Shown here piece after piece: positions 20,905-56,994 of a stretch of DNA of 64,000 nucleotides. Both the position numbers and the translations under genes were made by a program. The notes under the pieces are model-generated. The model made no database searches. It saw only the letters and a program-made list of their open reading frames with translations, and was not told where the DNA came from. The stretch's first letter is position 1. Every line of letters begins with the position of its first letter. The stretch is from Nitrospirota bacterium (GTDB taxonomy: Bacteria > Nitrospirota > UBA9217): contig CAVWHO010000020.1 of the NCBI GenBank assembly GCA_963754875.1, positions 352,001-416,000 of the forward strand. The letters are read 5' to 3'.

Positions 20905-21639
20905 ATGCAACACCTGAGACGACATCAAAGATACGGCCTGGATTTAATGGACGTAAAGGGCAAGATGAGTTTATCCGAAAAAGTCGAGATCCTTGATATC
21001 AGTCTCGGCGGAGTTGCCTTAAAAGTGGACCGAAGACTGAATCCCGGCAGAGAATATATGATCAAGCTGCACGATAAAGAGAATACTCTTAATGTAATGG
21101 GCATGATAGTCCGTTCCGAGCTCAGCGGAATGGAGACGAGAGACAATGGAGAAAGTGTCTCCATATACGCGGCAAGCATGCAGTTTAAAGATGGTTCAAC
21201 GGACCGGGTCGCCGATTTTCTTAAATCAATAGTGCCGAACCAAAAAAAGCCAGCCCCAATACCAGGGGAGCGGAGACTCGCTGTCAGGTCGCAAACTCCC
21301 GAGCCGCAGGAGAATATTTTGTGCTATCCCGCCAACTTCAAGGTGAAAACAGTCAGCCTCAGCGGCATGCTCATTCAGACTGATCAGGCCCTGGCAATAG
21401 AAAGCAAAGTCCCCATGGGATTGCCTCTGAATGACGGCACCACGGTCAACTTTACCGGACGAGTTGTTTCATGCCAAATGAAGGAAGACAAGGGGCAACA
21501 AACACACTTCGATATAGGGTCGGAGTTTATCGATCTGACAGACAAGGATAAAGCGTTGCTCCAAATGTTCATAGACCAGTGGACAACAATGGAAAACAGC
21601 ATCGCAAGAGAAAAAGAACACTCAGAGGGTCGTACCTGA
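20905..21639 (+). CDS. Tandem PilZ-domain protein
   Basis: RRHQRY and DISLGG; second domain ERRLAVR...TVSLSG. Confidence 0.85.
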   Translation: MQHLRRHQRYGLDLMDVKGKMSLSEKVEILDISLGGVALKVDRRLNPGREYMIKLHDKENTLNVMGMIVRSELSGMETRDNGESVSIYAASMQFKDGSTDRVADFLKSIVPNQKKPAPIPGERRLAVRSQTPEPQENILCYPANFKVKTVSLSGMLIQTDQALAIESKVPMGLPLNDGTTVNFTGRVVSCQMKEDKGQQTHFDIGSEFIDLTDKDKALLQMFIDQWTTMENSIAREKEHSEGRT

Positions 21640-22119
21640 ACGTCGTTGCCGGGAGAACCAATCGGGACATCCTGTATTGATTAAGATAGCAATAAACCAG
21701 CTTGCTTTTTCAACATGATAACCATGCCGGCTTCTTTTGAACGCACTGATCCTGTACAACGAGCAATCCGGTCCCTTTTTTGACATTATCTAAAAATACC
21801 CCCCCTTTACTAAATATCTTGCAATAAATAAACGAATATGATGGTAAAGTATCATATCTTTGTGTCATAATGTTTAATTTCCATTATAAACCTCCTGCAT
21901 TGCGCTGGTTTCTTTCTGTTTTATCAAGCATGTAAAATCTATTTGCCGAGTAGTTCTTCGACCACACAGGCCCGTACCAGAGCGTACTGCAGTGGCTCGG
22001 GGGAACGTCGTTCGGGAGCACGGGTTTTCTGAGCCGCGAGATCCAGATGTTTGCTGACTCAGATGCAGATCTGACCGCGCTTCTGAACGAACTGCTTTCC
22101 GGCAGAAGCCGGGAACCTA

Positions 22120-22140
22120 TAGGGTCAGGTCTTTTAATTT
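22120..22140 (+). repeat. REP-like motif TAGGGTCAGGTCTTTTAATTT (left of Y1 transposase)
   Basis: Inverted copy at 23031-23046; third copy split by the IS110 element. Confidence 0.8.
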
Positions 22141-22167
22141 GACATTCTCCTTTTTCAGTGCTAATCT
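22139..22167 (+). promoter_or_regulatory. Promoter of Y1 transposase gene, probably leaderless
   Basis: TTGACA-17 bp-TAATCT with TGn extension; ATG 7 nt downstream; no SD. Confidence 0.65.
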
Positions 22168-22173
22168 CGCCGC

Positions 22174-23025
22174 ATGACCCGCCCCCTTCGCATAGAATAC
22201 GCCGGAGCCGTCTACCACATCACCTCCCGCGGCAATGAAAAGAAGGCTGTTTTCAAAGACGACCAGGACCGCATCAACTTCCTGAACACGCTCCAGCATG
22301 TCAACAAGCGGTATAACTGGCTCTGTCATGCCTACTGCATGATGGACAATCATTATCACCTTCTGATCGAGACACCTGACGGCAATCTGTCCCTGGGTAT
22401 GCGGCAGTTGAACGGAGTCTATACGCAGCTTTTCAATAAACGTCATCAACGGACGGGCCATCTATTCCAAGGACGATACAAATCAATCCTCATTCAGAAG
22501 GACAGCCATCTTCTCGAAGTATGCAGGTACGTAGTATTAAATCCTGTCCGGGCGCGGATGGTTGAACGACCGGAAGCCTGGAAATGGTCCAGCTACCGTG
22601 CTACAGTGGGAAAGGAATCGCCGGCACCATGCCTGACAACGGACTGGGTCCTTGGGCAATTCAGCCGAAAGAGAACTGCGGCAGAGCAGAAATACCGGCA
22701 ATTCGTCGAATGGGGTATCGGCAAGGAGACTATCTGGAGAGAGGTAAAAGGACAGTCCATCCTGGGTGAAGACGATTTTGTGGAGGGACTCATCTCCCAT
22801 ATCAAGAAACATCAGAACATTCCTGAAATACCGAAGAGTCATCGCTATGTGAACAGACCGTCTCTCGACAAGATATTTCCGAAAAATGTGATCCTGGATA
22901 AGAGAAAACGAGATAAGAAGATCATTGATGCCGTGCAGAAATATGGTTATACTCAGCAGCAGATAGCCGCTCATTTGAGTATGCATTATTCAACGATCAG
23001 CAATCTGGTGAGGGGTAAGGCGTAA
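22174..23025 (+). CDS. HUH Y1 transposase-like protein (RAYT-like) with C-terminal HTH
   Basis: RPLRIEYAGAVYHITSRGN, HUH motif NHYHLL, HLFQGRY, YVVLNPVRA, WSSY; HTH YTQQQIAAHLSMHYSTIS. Confidence 0.9.
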   Translation: MTRPLRIEYAGAVYHITSRGNEKKAVFKDDQDRINFLNTLQHVNKRYNWLCHAYCMMDNHYHLLIETPDGNLSLGMRQLNGVYTQLFNKRHQRTGHLFQGRYKSILIQKDSHLLEVCRYVVLNPVRARMVERPEAWKWSSYRATVGKESPAPCLTTDWVLGQFSRKRTAAEQKYRQFVEWGIGKETIWREVKGQSILGEDDFVEGLISHIKKHQNIPEIPKSHRYVNRPSLDKIFPKNVILDKRKRDKKIIDAVQKYGYTQQQIAAHLSMHYSTISNLVRGKA

Positions 23026-23030
23026 CACCA

Positions 23031-23046
23031 AAATAAAAGACCTGAC
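23031..23046 (-). repeat. REP-like motif, inverted copy (right of Y1 transposase)
   Basis: AAATAAAAGACCTGAC = reverse complement GTCAGGTCTTTTATTT. Confidence 0.8.
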
Positions 23047-23193
23047 GCTTGACGGGTTCTAGTGATGCAGTTTCAGTTATTTCCATTTTGGAAAGCACTG
23101 ACGACGAAGGTGAACCTTTAAACTCACTTCTTGTCTTTTGCGCTAGACCGTTTCACTCGGAATTGTTATCATGCTATGTAAGGGGACCATCTG

Positions 23194-23790
23194 ATGTCAG
23201 AAAAGAATCCGCATGTCATTGTCATAGCCGGGCCGAACGGGGCCGGAAAATCGACGACAGCGCCGATGCTTCTCAAGGGGACGCTGGGTGTGACGGAGTT
23301 CGTGAATGCCGACGTCATCGCTCAGGGGCTCTCCGCGTTCCAGCCGGAGAGCGCGGCGTTCCATGCAGGCCGGGTCATGCTGGAGCGGCTGCACTTCCTT
23401 GCGAATGAGCGCGTGGATTTCGCATTTGAGACTACGCTGGCGAGCAGATCCTTTGCGCCCTGGATTGCAAAACTGAAGCAAAGCGGGTATACTTTCCACC
23501 TGGTGTTCCTGTGGCTTCCGAGCGCTGATTTTGCCGTTGCCCGCGTGGCCGAGCGGGTCCGCATGGGCGGGCATGATGTGTCTGAGGAAACCATTCGGAG
23601 GCGGTATAATAAGGGTATCGAGAACTTCTTCCGGCTTTACCGGCCGCTGTCGGACACGTGGCGGATGTATAATAATTCGGCCCGTATAGGACCACGGATT
23701 CTGGCTGATGGCGGGACTGGGAGAAGAGAAGCAACTTACGATCCGGCAACCTGGAGCATGATCAGAGGTGAACACAATGAGCGTAGCTGA
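23194..23790 (+). CDS. Zeta-toxin-like P-loop ATPase/kinase
   Basis: IAGPNGAGKST, FVNADVIA, FAFETTL, RVRMGGHDV. Confidence 0.88.
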   Translation: MSEKNPHVIVIAGPNGAGKSTTAPMLLKGTLGVTEFVNADVIAQGLSAFQPESAAFHAGRVMLERLHFLANERVDFAFETTLASRSFAPWIAKLKQSGYTFHLVFLWLPSADFAVARVAERVRMGGHDVSEETIRRRYNKGIENFFRLYRPLSDTWRMYNNSARIGPRILADGGTGRREATYDPATWSMIRGEHNERS

Positions 23791-23971
23791 AAAGAAAACA
23801 ATTGACGAACTCTTTCGCGACGGAAAAGAAATTGATATCGCTTTACGGAATGCCGTCCAGCAGGCTCTCTTGCAGCACAAGAAGGCCGGAAATCCTGTGG
23901 CCGAGTGGCGTGATGGCAAGGTTGTCTTGATCAAACCGGAAGATATTGTTGTTGAAGAGAATCAAAAGTAA
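23777..23971 (+). CDS. Small partner protein of zeta-like ATPase (putative antitoxin)
   Basis: Overlaps ATPase stop, GAGGTG RBS, HKKAGNPVAEWRDGKVV. Confidence 0.7.
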   Translation: MSVAEKKTIDELFRDGKEIDIALRNAVQQALLQHKKAGNPVAEWRDGKVVLIKPEDIVVEENQK

Positions 23972-24030
23972 AAACCCTCTCCGGGTTCCTTCCCTCTCAC
24001 ACAGCCCGCTCACCTTTGGAAAGCATCAAT

Positions 24031-24111
24031 AAAAAAGCCCCAGTCTTAACGGCGACTGAGGCGCTGCCACGGTCCTGAACCATAGGTAATGGACCACCAG
24101 CCTTGCGGCTT
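24031..24111 (-). ncRNA. Candidate ~80-nt small RNA (possibly PtaRNA1-like antisense RNA)
   Basis: TTGAAC-17-TATATT promoter (24146-24118); AGCC-GCAA-GGCT hairpin; GGTCC/GGACC stem; 9-bp terminator stem plus U6. Confidence 0.65.
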
Positions 24112-24171
24112 GGCAATAATATACAGCAGTGAATAATAGAGTTCAAGCTAAAAGGAAAGGCATTATCAGTT

Positions 24172-24212
24172 ATGACATCTTCCGCAATCGTTCAAAAACT
24201 CTGGAACTACTG
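24172..24212 (+). pseudogene. hsdM: 5' stub of a type I methyltransferase gene
   Basis: Encodes MTSSAIVQKLWNY versus MTPAAIVSKLWNY at 26927; ends at a G run just before the REP-like motif. Confidence 0.8.
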
Positions 24213-24249
24213 GGGGGGGCGATAGGGTCACCCATTTAAAGGGCACCGT

Positions 24250-24625
24250 CAAGCGGAAAAAGCTATCTTGTGGCGAGAAACGAATGTTTCTCGCCGAGCC
24301 TTTTCGTTATCTTCATCATTACCATTGCCGCAGTTTCATTCGGTTTCGGTGTCAGTCTTCACTGCACCAGTCACCCATCGGGATTAAGGTCATTGGTGAA
24401 GCTCTTTATCCATGACCCTTTCCGCCTTATGGCGGACCAGAAAATCTTCGGTTCCATGCCGTGTCCAGGAGTTTGTACAGGTCTCATGGTTGTTAACCAG
24501 CCCCATGATGGCTCGCGGCATGGGCAGTAAAGATGCTGATAACGCTATAAAAGGGTGGGACGGATTACCAATCAGGTCTCGTGGTTTTTTGCCAACCCTA
24601 AGCCAGGTTCACCGTCCCAGCCAGC
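24250..24625 (-). ncRNA. Bridge/seek RNA region of the IS1111-type element
   Basis: ~375-bp non-coding region 3' of recombinase; stem-enclosed loops matching both strands of the target; ATGGGTG matches the donor junction. Confidence 0.8.
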
Positions 24626-25654
24626 CTATGAACTTTGTGTAAAGATTTTCTCCGGCATAAAGGGAACTCCATCTCGCATGATGTAGTACGCTGCCCGCGC
24701 CAGTTTGTGGGCCAGGGCTTGATGGGCTATCATGGCGTTGGTCTTTTGCATCTTGCGCTGGTAATATGCCCGGGCTTCCGGATAATAGCGCCGGGCGATC
24801 TCGGCAGCTTCGGAAAAGGCCCATGCCAGGTACTTGTTGCCGCTTTTCTTGTTCCCTTTGCCCTTTTTCTTGTCGTTGCTGATCCATTTGGTTGAAACTT
24901 TCCGGCAGTAGGAACAATAGTTGCCGACTTGCGCGAAGCGGCTGATCGGGCCGGTCTCCAGCATGATGGTAAGTCCCAACGTTTTACCCACTCCCGGCAA
25001 CGTGAGGAGATTTTTGTATGGTTCGCGCAGCTCCATTCTGTCTTCTATGATGCTCTCAACCGTTTTGATCTTGAGCGTCAGAAAATCTATGGACTCCTTG
25101 CTGATCTTGCCGGCCAAGGCCAGGTCCTCGTTCTGCTCAAGAAACGGCGCAACGCGATCCGTTTTCAATGCCTTGACGTCGTTCGTCTTGAGCCGGAACC
25201 CGTTGTTACGGCAAATGATGTTCTGCAAACTGATGATGAGCGAGGTCCTGAGCTTTACGAGATGACTTCGTTTGCGTAACAAGTCACGGACTGGTCGATC
25301 TTCTTTCGGGTAAATGTAGCCTTCGGGAAGGATCCCGAGCCGCAGCATCTCGGCCAGCCAGAAGGCATCATGCTGATCGTCTGAATACTTGAGCCCCTTA
25401 TATTGCTTTATCTCCGTAGGGTTTGCGAGATGCACCTTGTATCCTTCTGCCATGAGTGCATCCACCAACCAGTACCAGTTGTACGTGGACTCGATGACGA
25501 TGCCGATAATCGTATCCTTGTATGGTGCGAGAGCGGAAAGAATTTGTTCCGGATCATTGGGAAGCTTCTTTTTGAACACCCGTTTACCAGTTTCATCGAT
25601 GATCGCCAGATAACTGTTGCTTGAATGTAGATCAATTCCTGTGTACAATCTCAT
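24626..25654 (-). CDS. IS110-family DEDD recombinase/transposase
   Basis: GIDLH, IVIEST, KYSDDQHDA, TLPGVG, GNKYLAWAF, ALAHKLAR. Confidence 0.95.
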   Translation of the reverse strand: MRLYTGIDLHSSNSYLAIIDETGKRVFKKKLPNDPEQILSALAPYKDTIIGIVIESTYNWYWLVDALMAEGYKVHLANPTEIKQYKGLKYSDDQHDAFWLAEMLRLGILPEGYIYPKEDRPVRDLLRKRSHLVKLRTSLIISLQNIICRNNGFRLKTNDVKALKTDRVAPFLEQNEDLALAGKISKESIDFLTLKIKTVESIIEDRMELREPYKNLLTLPGVGKTLGLTIMLETGPISRFAQVGNYCSYCRKVSTKWISNDKKKGKGNKKSGNKYLAWAFSEAAEIARRYYPEARAYYQRKMQKTNAMIAHQALAHKLARAAYYIMRDGVPFMPEKIFTQSS

Positions 25655-25832
25655 AAAGCACCTCCTGGGATAAGATTGGTCTCTTCTCCCAAGAGCATAT
25701 CAGAGCTTAACCACTCTGGTATGCTCTGGAGGTGCCCTTTATATGGTTATACAGGTCTTTTCTTCTTGATATCGCTTCTTTATGATATGGTGATATGGCG
25801 GTTGGAGCGGTGAGCGCGAATCGTCATCATTC

Positions 25833-26240
25833 CTAGCCCCGCCCGGCCCGGAGGGTTTCCCAGAATTGCCTCGGTGTGATGATGGGGATGTTTTTGTATC
25901 GCTCTAAAACGAGCAGATCCTTGTCGCCGGTTATAAGGTAGTCCGCATGTCCTGCATCGGCAGCGCCGAGAACGGGAAGGTCCTCGTTGTCGCGGCACTG
26001 CACAGCAGTCACCGGCAGCGGTACCGCAAGAATGGAATATTCTCTGAGATACGCCATGATGTCGTCGGCAATGGATGCTGGAAGCGCGATTTTTTGAATC
26101 AGTTTTTTACGAACTTCGGAAAGGATGTGCTCGCTGGTTATGACGGTGTGACCGGAAAGACAGAGTTCAAGAACGTCGGCGCTCAGGCCGCGCGCGGCAA
26201 ATGCCGCGATAATGACGTTCGTGTCCAGAAGGACTTTCAT
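25833..26240 (-). CDS. PIN-domain toxin (VapC-like)
   Basis: VLLDTNVIIAA, CRDNED, LITGDKDLL. Confidence 0.92.
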   Translation of the reverse strand: MKVLLDTNVIIAAFAARGLSADVLELCLSGHTVITSEHILSEVRKKLIQKIALPASIADDIMAYLREYSILAVPLPVTAVQCRDNEDLPVLGAADAGHADYLITGDKDLLVLERYKNIPIITPRQFWETLRAGRG

Positions 26241-26455
26241 GAAATAGCTTTGAATACATCTTCATCGGTCAGCAGGCCTTGTGATTCGGCAAACGGCAGG
26301 ACCTTTTTCCGCAACAGCTGAAACTGTTTGACCGAAAGGTAGCGGATAAGGGCATCTTTAATGATCTTGTCCTTCGATGTCTTTTCCGCTTTCATGACGG
26401 CTTCCAATTCTTTTTCGAGCTTGTCAGGTAATTTTATGGTAATACTTGATGGCAT
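26237..26455 (-). CDS. Ribbon-helix-helix (CopG-like) antitoxin
   Basis: ITIKLPDKL beta-helix-helix pattern; 4-bp overlap with PIN gene. Confidence 0.85.
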   Translation of the reverse strand: MPSSITIKLPDKLEKELEAVMKAEKTSKDKIIKDALIRYLSVKQFQLLRKKVLPFAESQGLLTDEDVFKAIS

Positions 26456-26473
26456 TGTTATCTCCTTTTATGT

Positions 26474-26707
26474 TTAACGCTTCTCTTCCCGGACTTCCTG
26501 TATCGCGTGAGCAATGTCTGATTCTATCTCGTCAGATGAATACTGCGAAGAACGGGCGTGGATTTTTCGCAGGATGCTGTCAAACCGCTTCTGCCATTCG
26601 TCATGGGAGAGGATTTTCAGCTCAACCTGTTCATGCTCTTTGAGGTCCATTTTCTGCAGCGGCTTGAGAACGCCGTTTTCGAATATTGCATTGACTACTT
26701 TGGACAT
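26474..26707 (-). CDS. AF2212/DUF104-like antitoxin
   Basis: AIFENGVLKPL...LKEHEQV; GGAGG RBS. Confidence 0.8.
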   Translation of the reverse strand: MSKVVNAIFENGVLKPLQKMDLKEHEQVELKILSHDEWQKRFDSILRKIHARSSQYSSDEIESDIAHAIQEVREEKR

Positions 26708-26926: not shown

Positions 26927-28495
26927 ATGACACCAGCAGCAATCGTTTCAAAACTCTGGAACTACTGTAACGTCCTCCGGGACGACGGAATGAGCTACGG
27001 CGATTATGTGGAGCAGCTCACGTACCTGCTGTTCCTCAAGATGGCCGACGAGCGCACGAAGCCGCCGTACAACCAGCCGAGCGCCGTGCCCGCGAAGTAC
27101 AACTGGCCGACGCTGCTCAAAAAAGACGGCGACGACCTGTTCGACCACTACCGCCACATGCTCGAAAGCCTGGGCAATGAAAAAGGTCTGCTCGGCCTGA
27201 TCTTCAACAAATCCCAGAACAAGTTTCAGGACCCTTCGAAGCTGCGACGGCTTGTTGTCGATCTGATCGATAAGGAAAACTGGTCGGTCATGAGCGCTGA
27301 TGTGAAAGGGGACGCATACGAGGGCCTCCTGGAGAAGAACGCACAGGATACCAAGTCCGGCGCAGGCCAGTACTTCACTCCCCGTCCTTTGATCCAGGCC
27401 ATGGTCGACGTGATCCAGCCGAAGCCGAAAGAGACCCTCTGCGATCCTGCGTGCGGGACCGGGGGCTTTCTCTTAGCTGCGCACGATTACGTGGTAAAGC
27501 ATAACCCGAACATGAGCGCCGATGAGAAGCGCAAACTCAAAGGCTCGACCTTTAAGGGCTGGGAGCTGGTCCAGAGCATGGCCCGGCTCTGCGCCATGAA
27601 CCTGATGCTCCACAGCATCGGGACCGACAAGGACCTTCCTATCATCGTTTCGGATTCTCTTGCTGCCGACCCGGGAGACAGGTTCGATATCGTACTGACC
27701 AATCCTCCCTTCGGGAAAAAGAGCAGCACCACTATCGTTGCTGAGAACGGCAAGGTATCACGGGAGACCGATATCATCGAGCGCGAGGACTTCTGGGCCA
27801 CGACGTCCAACAAACAGCTCAACTTCATCCAGCATGTAAAGACCCTTTTAAAACAGAATGGCCGCGCGGCGGTTGTCGTGCCGGATAACGTCCTGTTCGA
27901 AGGCGGGGCAGGGGAGACGGTCAGGAGAAAGCTCCTGCACGAGTGCGACGTGCATACCCTCCTGCGCCTGCCTACGGGCCTGTTCTACGCCCAGGGTGTG
28001 AAGGCGAACGTGCTGTTCTTCGACAAAAAGCCGGCAAGCGAAACACCTTGGACAAAGAAGCTCTGGATCTACGACCTCCGCACGAACATGCACTTCACGC
28101 TCAAGACGAGCTCCCTCCAGCGCTCAGATCTCGACGAGTTTGTGAAGAACTACAACCCCGAGAACCGCCATCAGCGTAAGGCTACCTGGAAGACTTCCCC
28201 CTCACCCCAGCCCTCTCCCCGAAGGGGCGAGGGAGTAAAAAATAAGCGCAAAACAAGTGGAGAGGAAGGTAAAAATGAAGGGCGCTGGCGGTCGTATACC
28301 TATGACGAACTCGTAAGCCGCGACAAGGCGAGCCTCGACATCTTCTGGCTCAAGGACGAATCCCTCGAAGCATCCGACAACTTGCCCGATCCCGACGTTA
28401 TCGCCCAGGAGATCGTGGAAGACCTGGAAGCTGCGTTGGAACAGTTTAGGGAGATTGTGGCTGATCTTGGTAGCAATAAGAAAAGTGCCGATTAA
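26927..28495 (+). CDS. hsdM: Type I restriction-modification N6-adenine methyltransferase (no hsdS/hsdR nearby)
   Basis: GAGQYFTPR, DPACGTGGFL, TNPPFG. Confidence 0.93.
   Translation: MTPAAIVSKLWNYCNVLRDDGMSYGDYVEQLTYLLFLKMADERTKPPYNQPSAVPAKYNWPTLLKKDGDDLFDHYRHMLESLGNEKGLLGLIFNKSQNKFQDPSKLRRLVVDLIDKENWSVMSADVKGDAYEGLLEKNAQDTKSGAGQYFTPRPLIQAMVDVIQPKPKETLCDPACGTGGFLLAAHDYVVKHNPNMSADEKRKLKGSTFKGWELVQSMARLCAMNLMLHSIGTDKDLPIIVSDSLAADPGDRFDIVLTNPPFGKKSSTTIVAENGKVSRETDIIEREDFWATTSNKQLNFIQHVKTLLKQNGRAAVVVPDNVLFEGGAGETVRRKLLHECDVHTLLRLPTGLFYAQGVKANVLFFDKKPASETPWTKKLWIYDLRTNMHFTLKTSSLQRSDLDEFVKNYNPENRHQRKATWKTSPSPQPSPRRGEGVKNKRKTSGEEGKNEGRWRSYTYDELVSRDKASLDIFWLKDESLEASDNLPDPDVIAQEIVEDLEAALEQFREIVADLGSNKKSAD
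28199..28234. repeat. 36-bp palindromic element inside hsdM (PSPQPSPRRGEG)
   Basis: CCCTCACCCCAGCCCTCTCCCCGAAGGGGCGAGGGA; 29/36 identical to 55110-55145. Confidence 0.75.
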
Positions 28496-56253: not shown

Positions 56254-56994
56254 TCAACGATTGATCTTTGATTTGCTCTTTCTCATTGATTCTCCTTTCA
56301 GGTCTATTTTGTAGGCGTTATGCACCAGACGGTCCATGATAGCGTCAGCCAAGGTCGGGTCGGCCAGGATATCATGCCAGTGCTTAACCGGCATTTGGGT
56401 AGTTATGAGGGTCGACCGGCGATCATAACGGTCCTCGATGATTTCCAGAAGATCTCTTTGCTGTTCCGTCGTGAGCGGAGCAAGTCCGAAGTCGTCGAGG
56501 ACAAGCAGGTCTGCCTTGAGAAGTGACTTCATCAGTTTCCGATACCGTCCGTCGTGATGCGATAGGGCCAGATCTTCAAGAAGCCTCGGCAGCCTCTGAT
56601 ACACGACGGCATGACCATCACGGCAGGCTTTGTGGGACAGGGCGCAGGCAAGATAGCTCTTTCCCACGCCGGTCGGGCCGATGATAAGCAGATTGTGATG
56701 CTCGATAATCCACTGGTTCGACGCAAGCGACAGAATGAGCGATTTGTCCAGCCCTCGGGGCTGACGGAAGTCGATGTCTTCGATAGATGCTGAGATTCTC
56801 AGTTTTGCAGCTCGTAAGCGCGTAACAAGCCGTCTGTTCTCTCGTTCTGTCAGTTCTCGGTCAATAAGGAGCCCAAGCCGCTCCTCAAAGCTTAGTGAAG
56901 TCGCTTTTTGATTCTGCAGTTGTTCACGCAGGGCTTTTGCCATGCCAAAAAGACGGAGTTGTTCGATCTTGTCGAGTGTGGGATGCGCTAACAT
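56254..56994 (-). CDS. istB: IS21 helper ATPase
   Basis: GPTGVGKS, LLVLDDFG, AIMDRLVHNA, GESMR. Confidence 0.96.
   Translation of the reverse strand: MLAHPTLDKIEQLRLFGMAKALREQLQNQKATSLSFEERLGLLIDRELTERENRRLVTRLRAAKLRISASIEDIDFRQPRGLDKSLILSLASNQWIIEHHNLLIIGPTGVGKSYLACALSHKACRDGHAVVYQRLPRLLEDLALSHHDGRYRKLMKSLLKADLLVLDDFGLAPLTTEQQRDLLEIIEDRYDRRSTLITTQMPVKHWHDILADPTLADAIMDRLVHNAYKIDLKGESMRKSKSKINR

Follow-up and report, generated by a model that had tools for sequence, protein, structure and literature searches.

A probably RNA-guided insertion sequence of the IS1111 group in the terminal repeats of TIRtron-like Y1 transposase units of a Nitrospirota genome

Insertion sequences of the IS1111 group of the IS110 family are portrayed, in those sections of the literature on which we draw here, as site-specific elements with a downstream RNA (PMC11187229, PMC11208160). 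Their recombinase of 330-350 aa is followed by a longer non-coding region (PMC11187229), their subterminal repeats measure 7-17 bp (PMC11208160), and their seekRNA carries the match to the top strand of the target 5' of the match to the bottom strand (Siddiquee et al. 2024, PMC11187229). For some of them, the targets are repeats, attC sites of integrons or terminal repeats of transposons of the Tn21 family (PMC11187229, PMC11208160). TIRtrons, in the sections of the respective reports used here, encode a TIRYT, i.e. a protein resembling REP-associated tyrosine transposases (RAYTs; REP, repetitive extragenic palindrome) that is flanked by terminal inverted repeats, many of them with the sequence GGGGWSAS (Di Nocera et al. 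2013, PMC3733652); such proteins form subclass 2.1, with HTH_23, HTH_28 or Bac_DnaA_C extensions (Quentin et al. 2018, PMC6006769). Here we describe an element of the IS1111 group that in all likelihood is directed by a bridge RNA (seekRNA) into the terminal repeat of a TIRtron. It lies in a stretch of 64 kb from a Nitrospirota bacterium (contig CAVWHO010000020.1, positions 352,001 to 416,000), which was analyzed as a whole and is referred to as the window; coordinates are those of the window unless a contig is named.

Insertion into REPs is described for ISPpu9, an element of the IS110 family, in the portion of the source available for it. IS621 reportedly targets REPs as well, and IS110-family elements inserting into REPs are, to judge by its title, the subject of Tobes and Pareja 2006. 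The element described here resembles these in being, very probably, RNA-guided and in landing in a repeat that is linked to a tyrosine transposase. In contrast to theirs, its repeat is non-palindromic, present in low copy number and constitutes the end of the transposase-carrying unit itself. An IS1111-type element having the terminal inverted repeat of a Tn3-family transposon as its specific target is likewise said to exist; compared with it, to judge by the title of the report, the host transposon in our case is a small Y1 (HUH) unit.

With ISEc11, ISPa11 and ISKpn4 (PMC11187229; Durrant et al. 2024, PMC11208160) the element shares, within what the sections consulted report, the DEDD_Tnp_IS110 and Transposase_20 domains in a recombinase of 330-350 aa, a short left end (LE), subterminal repeats, and a long downstream non-coding end putatively encoding an RNA with one guide per target strand. 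It differs from them in belonging to a distantly related lineage, found in Nitrospirota and deltaproteobacterial metagenome genomes and known from sequence alone, in its target, and in the residue following the aligned catalytic serine, which is N rather than G. The element and its parts are located as follows.

24231..25753, minus strand: IS1111-type insertion sequence, 1523 bp, CA/TG core counted once.
24626..25654, minus strand: recombinase gene, 342 aa, DEDD recombinase.
24232..24247, no strand assigned: subterminal inverted repeat, arm at the right end (RE), 16 bp, CCATTTAAAGGGCACC, conserved in relatives.
25731..25746, no strand assigned: subterminal inverted repeat, LE arm, 16 bp, conserved in relatives.
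24247..24252, minus strand: TTGACG, -35 half of the predicted circle-junction promoter, spacing computed.
25746-25751: TATAAC, -10 half of the predicted circle-junction promoter.

In the orientation of the recombinase gene, LE is at 25753 and RE at 24231, leaving non-coding ends of 99 nt upstream of the gene (LE) and of 395 nt downstream (RE, 24231-24625). These ends were set by three copies of 99% identity with differing flanks and by the alignment of 29 related elements. An initial annotation of this DNA, made from the sequence without database searches, had recognized the element and placed it at 24221-25765, thereby including about 10 nt of flank on each side. Its classification as an IS110 element of IS1111 type is borne out by Pfam (DEDD_Tnp_IS110, PF01548, 8.9e-20; Transposase_20, PF02371, 8.9e-12) and by NCBIfam (NF033542, 'IS110 family RNA-guided transposase', 178.1 bits with a cut-off of 140). 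The transposases of ISCro4 (E 4.7e-10) and IS621 (E 2.1e-9) are relatives of the recombinase in the PDB. Candidate DEDD residues reside in the stretches GIDLH (from residue 6), VIEST (from 53) and SDDQHDA (from 91), and the serine of WISND (motif from residue 257) aligns with the SG serine of ISCro4, followed here by N instead of G. We therefore assign the element to the IS1111 group of the IS110 family: the DEDD and PF02371 domains, the subterminal repeats, the longer downstream non-coding region and a recombinase of 342 aa are all present, and every sequence-level feature of the group that could be tested was found, except for the N after the aligned catalytic serine.

The two arms of the inverted repeat match at 15 of 16 positions and, with the CA core counted at both ends, are set in by 3 and 7 nt, the offsets given in the initial annotation; as written on the plus strand of the window, the element ends in ...TTATACA on the right. 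Likewise in agreement with that annotation, joining of RE to LE as computed would place TTGACG 18 nt from TATAAC, or 17 nt from GTATAA, facing the recombinase gene. TTGAC is present in 28 of the 29 aligned relatives, L023 having TTTAC (L numbers designate related loci, see below). A sigma-70 scan of the integrated copy returned nothing on the coding (minus) strand, and no terminator-like site was found either.

To define the target, we compared the flanks of the element with the rest of the window and with the genome assembly to which the window belongs (G000; 4.3 Mb in 22 contigs, 90% complete, repeats possibly under-assembled). The relevant stretches are:

24223..24230, plus strand: TAGGGTCA, the interrupted target's left half up to and including the CA core.
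25754..25785, plus strand: right half of the interrupted target, GGTCTTTT...TTGATAT, resembling the inner portion of a left-type repeat, with no Y1 gene after it.
22120..23050, plus strand: intact TIRtron 2 kb from the element, left repeat from 22120, right repeat ending at 23050; an unoccupied perfect target.
22174-23025, plus strand: Y1 (TIRYT) gene, 283 aa.

The left flank reads ...CGATAGGGTCA up to 24230 and the right flank opens with GGTCTTTTCTTC at 25754. When both are joined with the CA counted once, a 16-mer results that, as the initial annotation had stated, exactly matches the intact stretch 22120-22135; for a given 16-mer, about 3e-5 chance occurrences are expected on both strands of 64 kb at uniform base composition. 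A further copy with 2 mismatches is located at 23035-23050 on the minus strand. The Y1 protein encoded between these two copies matches Y1_Tnp in Pfam (PF01797, 2.8e-14) and REP_Tyr_transpos in NCBIfam (NF047646, 90.9 bits, cut-off 80), and its C-terminus matches HTH_23 weakly (E 3.8e-4; 20.6 bits, under the cut-off of 24.6 bits). The translation contains HYH and a stretch RYVVLNP, which we take to be the HUH and catalytic tyrosine motifs. Four full paralogues of 72-100% identity, a fifth, distant one on contig C8 at 36%, and fragments are present in G000. Inverted copies of TAGGGTCAGGTC(T/C), each with 8-12 variable bases behind it, bound the full units; four units have the motif at both ends, one of these far ends being a copy interrupted by the element. 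Among five loci with full-length Y1 homologues in other genomes, the motif is present on both sides in three and on the upstream side alone in two. The repeat contains AGGGTCAG, which agrees with the published GGGGWSAS consensus at 7 of 8 positions (variants on C7 read GGGGTCAG), and the CA exchange point falls inside this motif. A second repeat family, on C8, reads GGGGTCAA.

By these comparisons, the element targets the outer end of a terminal inverted repeat, and this repeat bounds a multi-copy Y1 unit of the TIRtron/TIRYT kind. The unit shares with the TIRtrons, in the parts of their description drawn on, a RAYT-like Y1 protein, a C-terminal helix-turn-helix region (here with the HTH_23 match below cut-off) and terminal repeats rather than hairpins; it differs in that it is multi-copy in G000 and that the published examples, in those same parts, are not reported as targets of the IS110 family. 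The initial annotation had instead read the target as a REP-like motif belonging to the neighbouring HUH transposase and as a multi-copy repeat, for which it supposed maintenance by the RAYT-like protein. The corresponding explanation, according to which the target is a high-copy extragenic palindrome spread by the RAYT-like protein and the element lives on this repeat family, we consider improbable. None of the five repeat ends that were folded as DNA did better than shuffled sequences (-0.9 to -2.7 kcal/mol, z +0.5 to +1.1), although the NCBIfam label of the Y1 protein is that of a REP-associated tyrosine transposase and the gene lies between inverted copies of the motif, an arrangement that RAYT genes have with REPs. 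Solo and doublet copies of repeat-like sequence also exist in small number, e.g. on C14 (C14:188539 and C14:195374/195416), and solo motifs hold two of the three intact element copies. However, GTCAGGTCTTT, the 11-mer core of the target, occurs only 12 times in the 4.3-Mb genome, 6 of these being repeat-type sites when the listing is read, and a 13-mer with up to 2 mismatches is not enriched (58 in G000 versus 72 in a reversed-genome control); TAGGGTCAGGTCT has 3 exact occurrences in G000. Moreover, the four full copies and the fragments set the Y1 gene apart from typical RAYTs, which are single-copy, and the unit matches the published TIRtron/TIRYT description instead, both points resting on the sections of the literature drawn on. 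Since the motif has no hairpin, its 11-mer core occurs only 12 times and the 13-mer is no commoner than in the control, the target is not a REP. What stands of the earlier reading is that the motif flanks the Y1 gene on both sides; its REP-like character and the idea of a high-copy family do not.

Repeat-like stretches were also noted apart from full units. Two short inverted doublets on C14, at C14:188539-188620 (TAGGGGCAAGTCTTT...) and C14:195374-195428 (TAGGGACAGGTCTAT...), look like small non-autonomous derivatives of the Y1 unit. At the related locus L112 (genome G018), about 120 nt beyond a break in synteny, a variant of the repeat has GGTCAGGTC reduced to GGTC, the other strand reading ...GATAGGGTCTTTATCCTTGACATTC.

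G000 holds three copies of the element at 99-100% identity, on contigs C20 (the copy of the window), C15 and C5, and two diverged fragments, i.e. relics, on C7 and C18. Each intact copy is bordered by ...GTCA at RE and by GGTCTTT at LE; the sequence further out is unrelated, and the bases immediately outside differ between the three (TAGGGTCA, CTCAGGTCA, AAGTGTCA). For the C5 copy, the insertion site is the right terminal repeat of a Y1 transposase gene. This gene is the one on C6, as the two contigs, C5 and C6, share an overlap of 324 nt with 100% identity. The C18 relic, consisting of LE and 34 codons at 85% identity, adjoins ...AAAAGACC followed by the start of a degenerate Y1 gene, and is thus placed in the left repeat of that gene, while the C7 relic, 330 nt of RE at 76% identity, adjoins CTTAGGGTCA. 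A scan of species-representative genomes yielded 70 related loci, mostly in Nitrospirota and deltaproteobacterial metagenome genomes, and eight related elements from five other genomes (L006, L007, L008, L059, L061, L044, L058 and L063) share these flanks. The same motif, the same orientation and a single shared CA were found in all five copies and relics of G000 and in these eight relatives. The initial annotation would have been refuted by other copies in unrelated sequence; all of those found lie in the motif. Judged from these junctions, insertion is site-specific, orientation-specific and without target duplication.

That the shared flanks belong to the element, its ends having been set 8-10 nt too far in, and that there is no separate target, seems to us scarcely credible. 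TAGGGTCA and GGTCT do recur beside most copies, but the bases just outside vary among the copies, as listed above, and relatives with the same element ends have quite different flanks. In addition, both G000 and other genomes contain Y1 units that have the uninterrupted motif on either side and no element in their vicinity.

Two of the sites in G000 show further peculiarities. The start of contig C6 lies a few bases into the repeat that adjoins the element, and this assembly break at the border of element and repeat could reflect a mixed population. At C7 (G000:C7:59918-60460), the RE of the relic is truncated by a repeat of another subtype, TGGGGTCAGGTCCATACTGTT, which is preceded by a duplicated GGGAACTTCCTGGGGTC and followed after 150 nt by a right-type repeat; two kinds of element may insert into each other here.

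The long non-coding end of the element contains a candidate for the guide RNA with the following segments.

24339..24628, minus strand: bridge/seekRNA candidate within the 395-nt RE non-coding region, from single-sequence fold and consensus structure.
24555..24621, minus strand: putative target-binding stem-loop; its outer stem (24612-24621 with 24555-24563) encloses both guides.
24595..24602, minus strand: 5' target guide CUUAGGGU, complementary to the RE-side flank (ACCCTAAG in recombinase orientation).
24573..24580, minus strand: 3' target guide and core GAGACCUG, identical to the LE-side flank plus the TG core.
24473..24487, minus strand: second loop, 3' strand, AUGAGACCUGUACAA, resembling the LE-side flank, core and LE start; may act as a donor or a handshake guide.
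24367..24379, minus strand: GAUGGGUGACUGG, equal to the RE end followed by the core and the 2 adjacent bases of flank; may be the donor guide for RE.

The RE non-coding region folds better than each of 100 shuffled sequences (z -3.9). A consensus obtained with RNAalifold from 20 sequences comprises 59 pairs, 14 of them with compensatory changes, and five such pairs lie in the stem enclosing the guides (alignment columns 10/74, 12/72, 13/71, 14/70 and 15/69). For comparison of guides and flanks, we used 29 elements, including the three of G000, for which both ends were located and the non-coding ends could be aligned. Across at least eight (about ten) target classes the guides change together with the flanks, while the enclosing stems are conserved. 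Relatives in which both flanks and guides differ from those of the window include L010/L011, L012-L019, L032 and L043. Thus, L010/L011 carry the guides AUUCUAUGC and AUAUUCUG and have the flanks ...GTATTC|TG and TG|CATAGAA; L014-L018 carry CAAUAGGAC and GAGAAAUG with ...TAGAAA|TG and TG|TCCTATT, L012/L013 and L019 having variant guides; and L032 carries AUUUGGGGU and GAGAUUUG with ...AAGATT|TG and TG|ACCCC. Among 11 representatives, guides matched their own flanks over a mean of 10.7 nt as compared to 6.2 nt for flanks of others, and the observed sum was reached in none of 100,000 permutations; two of the representatives have the same target, which makes a positive outcome harder to reach. The guides are arranged with the top-strand match 5' of the bottom-strand match, as is reported for the seekRNAs of the IS1111 group. 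The third segment, GAUGGGUGAC, equals the RE end plus core and two flank bases and follows the RE end across relatives: all eight aligned relatives whose RE ends in ...TGGA carry GAUGGAUG at this position, and 20 of 21 with ...TGGG carry GAUGGGUG, the remaining one, L035, having GAUGGCUG.

Because the guide loops in the 3' non-coding end covary with the flanks across relatives, the element is very probably RNA-guided, in support of what the initial annotation had proposed. A recombinase protein that reads the target DNA by itself, matches between non-coding end and flanks being incidental, would find a suitable cue in the short direct repeat GGTC-A-GGTC within the flank. We nevertheless judge this very unlikely, as the guide segments change with the flanks over at least eight target classes within conserved stems, and as RNA guidance has been demonstrated experimentally for this protein family, in the sections of the reports drawn on (PMC11187229, PMC11208160).

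Taken together, we hold it highly probable that the element is an active or recently active member of the IS1111 group which is guided by a bridge/seekRNA into the terminal repeat of a TIRtron. In the proposed course of events, the DEDD/serine recombinase would be guided by the RNA from the 395-nt non-coding end. The 5' guide would pair with one strand of the flank that ends at the RE side, and the 3' guide with the other strand, i.e. the LE-side flank plus the 2-nt core, so that both guides would jointly specify 5'-TTAGGGT-CA-GGTCT(C)-3' on the plus strand of the window. By analogy with IS621, ISEc11 and relatives, the element would be excised as a circle, whose joined ends would form the promoter TTGACG-18-TATAAC facing the recombinase gene. 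The RNA would then bridge circle junction and target, whereupon strands would be exchanged at CA; the element would thereby always be inserted in the same orientation, and the target would not be duplicated. The sequences show the family, the ends, the recurrent use of one target and the covariation both of guides with flanks and within the RNA structure; we infer the circle, the activity of the promoter, the expression of the RNA and the layout of donor binding.

Several results weigh against this reading or parts of it. First, two of the three intact copies are without an adjoining Y1 gene, their targets being solo repeat-like stretches. Second, the RE-side flanks of the C15 and C5 copies fit the 5' guide only over the first 3 and 2 bases past the core, respectively; either the 5' guide is tolerant or these flanks have changed since. 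Third, the match of the second loop to the LE start fails in L023, L024, L026, L061 and L063. On account of these five misfits we no longer read the second loop simply as the donor guide for the start of LE, and any donor-binding layout is tentative. Fourth, an Rfam scan of 21500-26500 with E up to 1 returned only two chance matches resembling snoRNAs and no bridge RNA family. Fifth, among 40 relatives there is no orthologous empty site, the sole genome that shares the right flank (G008) carrying the element. Sixth, relatives show rearrangements at the sites of the other two copies: the match to the C15 flank stops about 100 nt short of the element, with an in-genome paralogue diverging 34 nt before it, and for the C5 flank synteny with five relatives ends about 30 nt away from the element. 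Seventh, the assembled contigs of public metagenome runs, which cannot show rare forms, contained neither a joint skipping 24231-25753 nor a circle junction. These were Logan contigs, the best run having 0.28 of the sampled words; the runs X1, X2, X3 and X18 were compared, X18 being an RNA library whose cover does not show transcription. All four have relatives of 90-99% likeness with loose ends at the element borders, on contigs whose match to the window stops at 24222-24224 and 25759-25772, i.e. inside the motif. As such contigs cannot show rare forms, the missing joint says nothing about activity.

As to the age of the insertion, the same right flank adjoins the element in G008, a relative of the same genus that apparently is the assembly containing L006 and L007; element and flank together are 90.5% identical over 2552 nt. 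Hence, by this comparison, the copy of the window is old or travelled within a block. More recent movement, on the other hand, is suggested by the 99% identity that the three copies of G000 have to one another.

Next, we consider the relatives elsewhere. Homologues of the Y1 protein are encoded in all five genomes that contain relatives with the same target. In the vicinity of these eight relatives (tblastn, up to 1.5 kb of flank), the only trace of a Y1 gene was an N-terminal fragment of 19 aa, at L058. A second variant is represented by L032, a sister lineage from a deltaproteobacterial genome, whose recombinase is 69% identical and whose guides are aimed at GGGGT-CA-AATCTT. The distant Y1 unit on C8 of G000 has exactly this target as its terminal repeat, perfect at both ends, and the 51%-identical homologue of that unit in the genome of L032 itself carries the repeat as well. 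By sequence, each of the two guide variants thus corresponds to a TIRtron repeat variant of its own, the CA of exchange being the same in both. A bolder explanation is that a clade of IS1111-type elements with bridge RNAs has specialized on TIRtrons over the long term, with guides retuned to the repeat variants (GGGT-CA-GGTCT in the lineage of the window, GGGGT-CA-AATCT in that of L032), exchange always at the CA inside GGGGWSAS, and solo repeats that TIRtrons left behind as extra landing pads. We regard this as a tentative possibility, distinctly less probable than not. Exchange at this CA means that each insertion splits an end presumably needed by the Y1 transposase, and if the specialization were real, the element would be a hyperparasite that disables another transposon or rides on it.

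Neither an IS110-family element aimed at TIRtron repeats nor two guide variants paired with two repeat variants were found in the literature searched, from which subscription journals and supplements were absent; the TIRtron report (PMC3733652), in the sections available, mentions neither IS110 nor IS1111. The 29 elements, whose guides are readable straight from the alignment, provide a natural example of the programming of bridge/seekRNAs and useful material for those who map the guide code of recombinases of IS1111 type, in which the donor loop is less well understood than in IS621. They also link two poorly studied mobile elements, in that TIRtron/TIRYT units of several Nitrospirota genomes probably serve an RNA-guided insertion sequence as its landing site. 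Should this relationship prove specific, one transposon would parasitize another by way of a programmable RNA, and the GGGGWSAS end would be marked as functionally important.

Some observations concern other relatives. For the eight elements L012-L019, which reside in one Nitrospirota metagenome genome, the target ...GCAAAGTAGAAA|TG|TCCTATT... recurs in the flanks at a spacing of about 24 nt, as if in a tandem array. In L035 and L039, part of the RE terminus occurs a second time behind it (...AAATGGGTG, then CCCTTTAAATGGGTA...), and the 5' guide of L035 fits the sequence after this second copy; the doubled terminus may be the footprint of a nested or tandem insertion. G000 further encodes a distant recombinase of the IS110 family, about 25% identical, in two gene copies (G000:C11:42069-43067 and C16:429549-430547).

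Finally, some features of the surroundings of the element in the window may be noted. Immediately to its left, at 24172-24213, a stretch beginning with ATG reads MTSSAIVQKLWNYW by eye, like the start of an HsdM-like gene; a full gene for a type I methylase (HsdM-like) with the start MTPAAIVSKLWNYC is located at 26927-28495, and G008 has a longer fragment of the HsdM-like gene to the left of the same element. This suggests a rearrangement or an insertion within a restriction-modification locus, bounded by the repeat. Pairs resembling toxin-antitoxin systems flank the element at 23194-23971 and 25833-26455, one being composed of a zeta-toxin/AAA-like gene of 198 aa and a partner of 67 aa, the other of a PIN-domain gene and a ribbon-helix-helix partner. 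An unrelated repeat, ...TCCGTCGTGATGCGATAGGGCCAGATCTTCAAGAAGCC..., occurs in at least six identical copies, namely in the window at about 56563-56575 and at C5:14737, C7:58943, C16:176433, C20:168648 and C22:53094.

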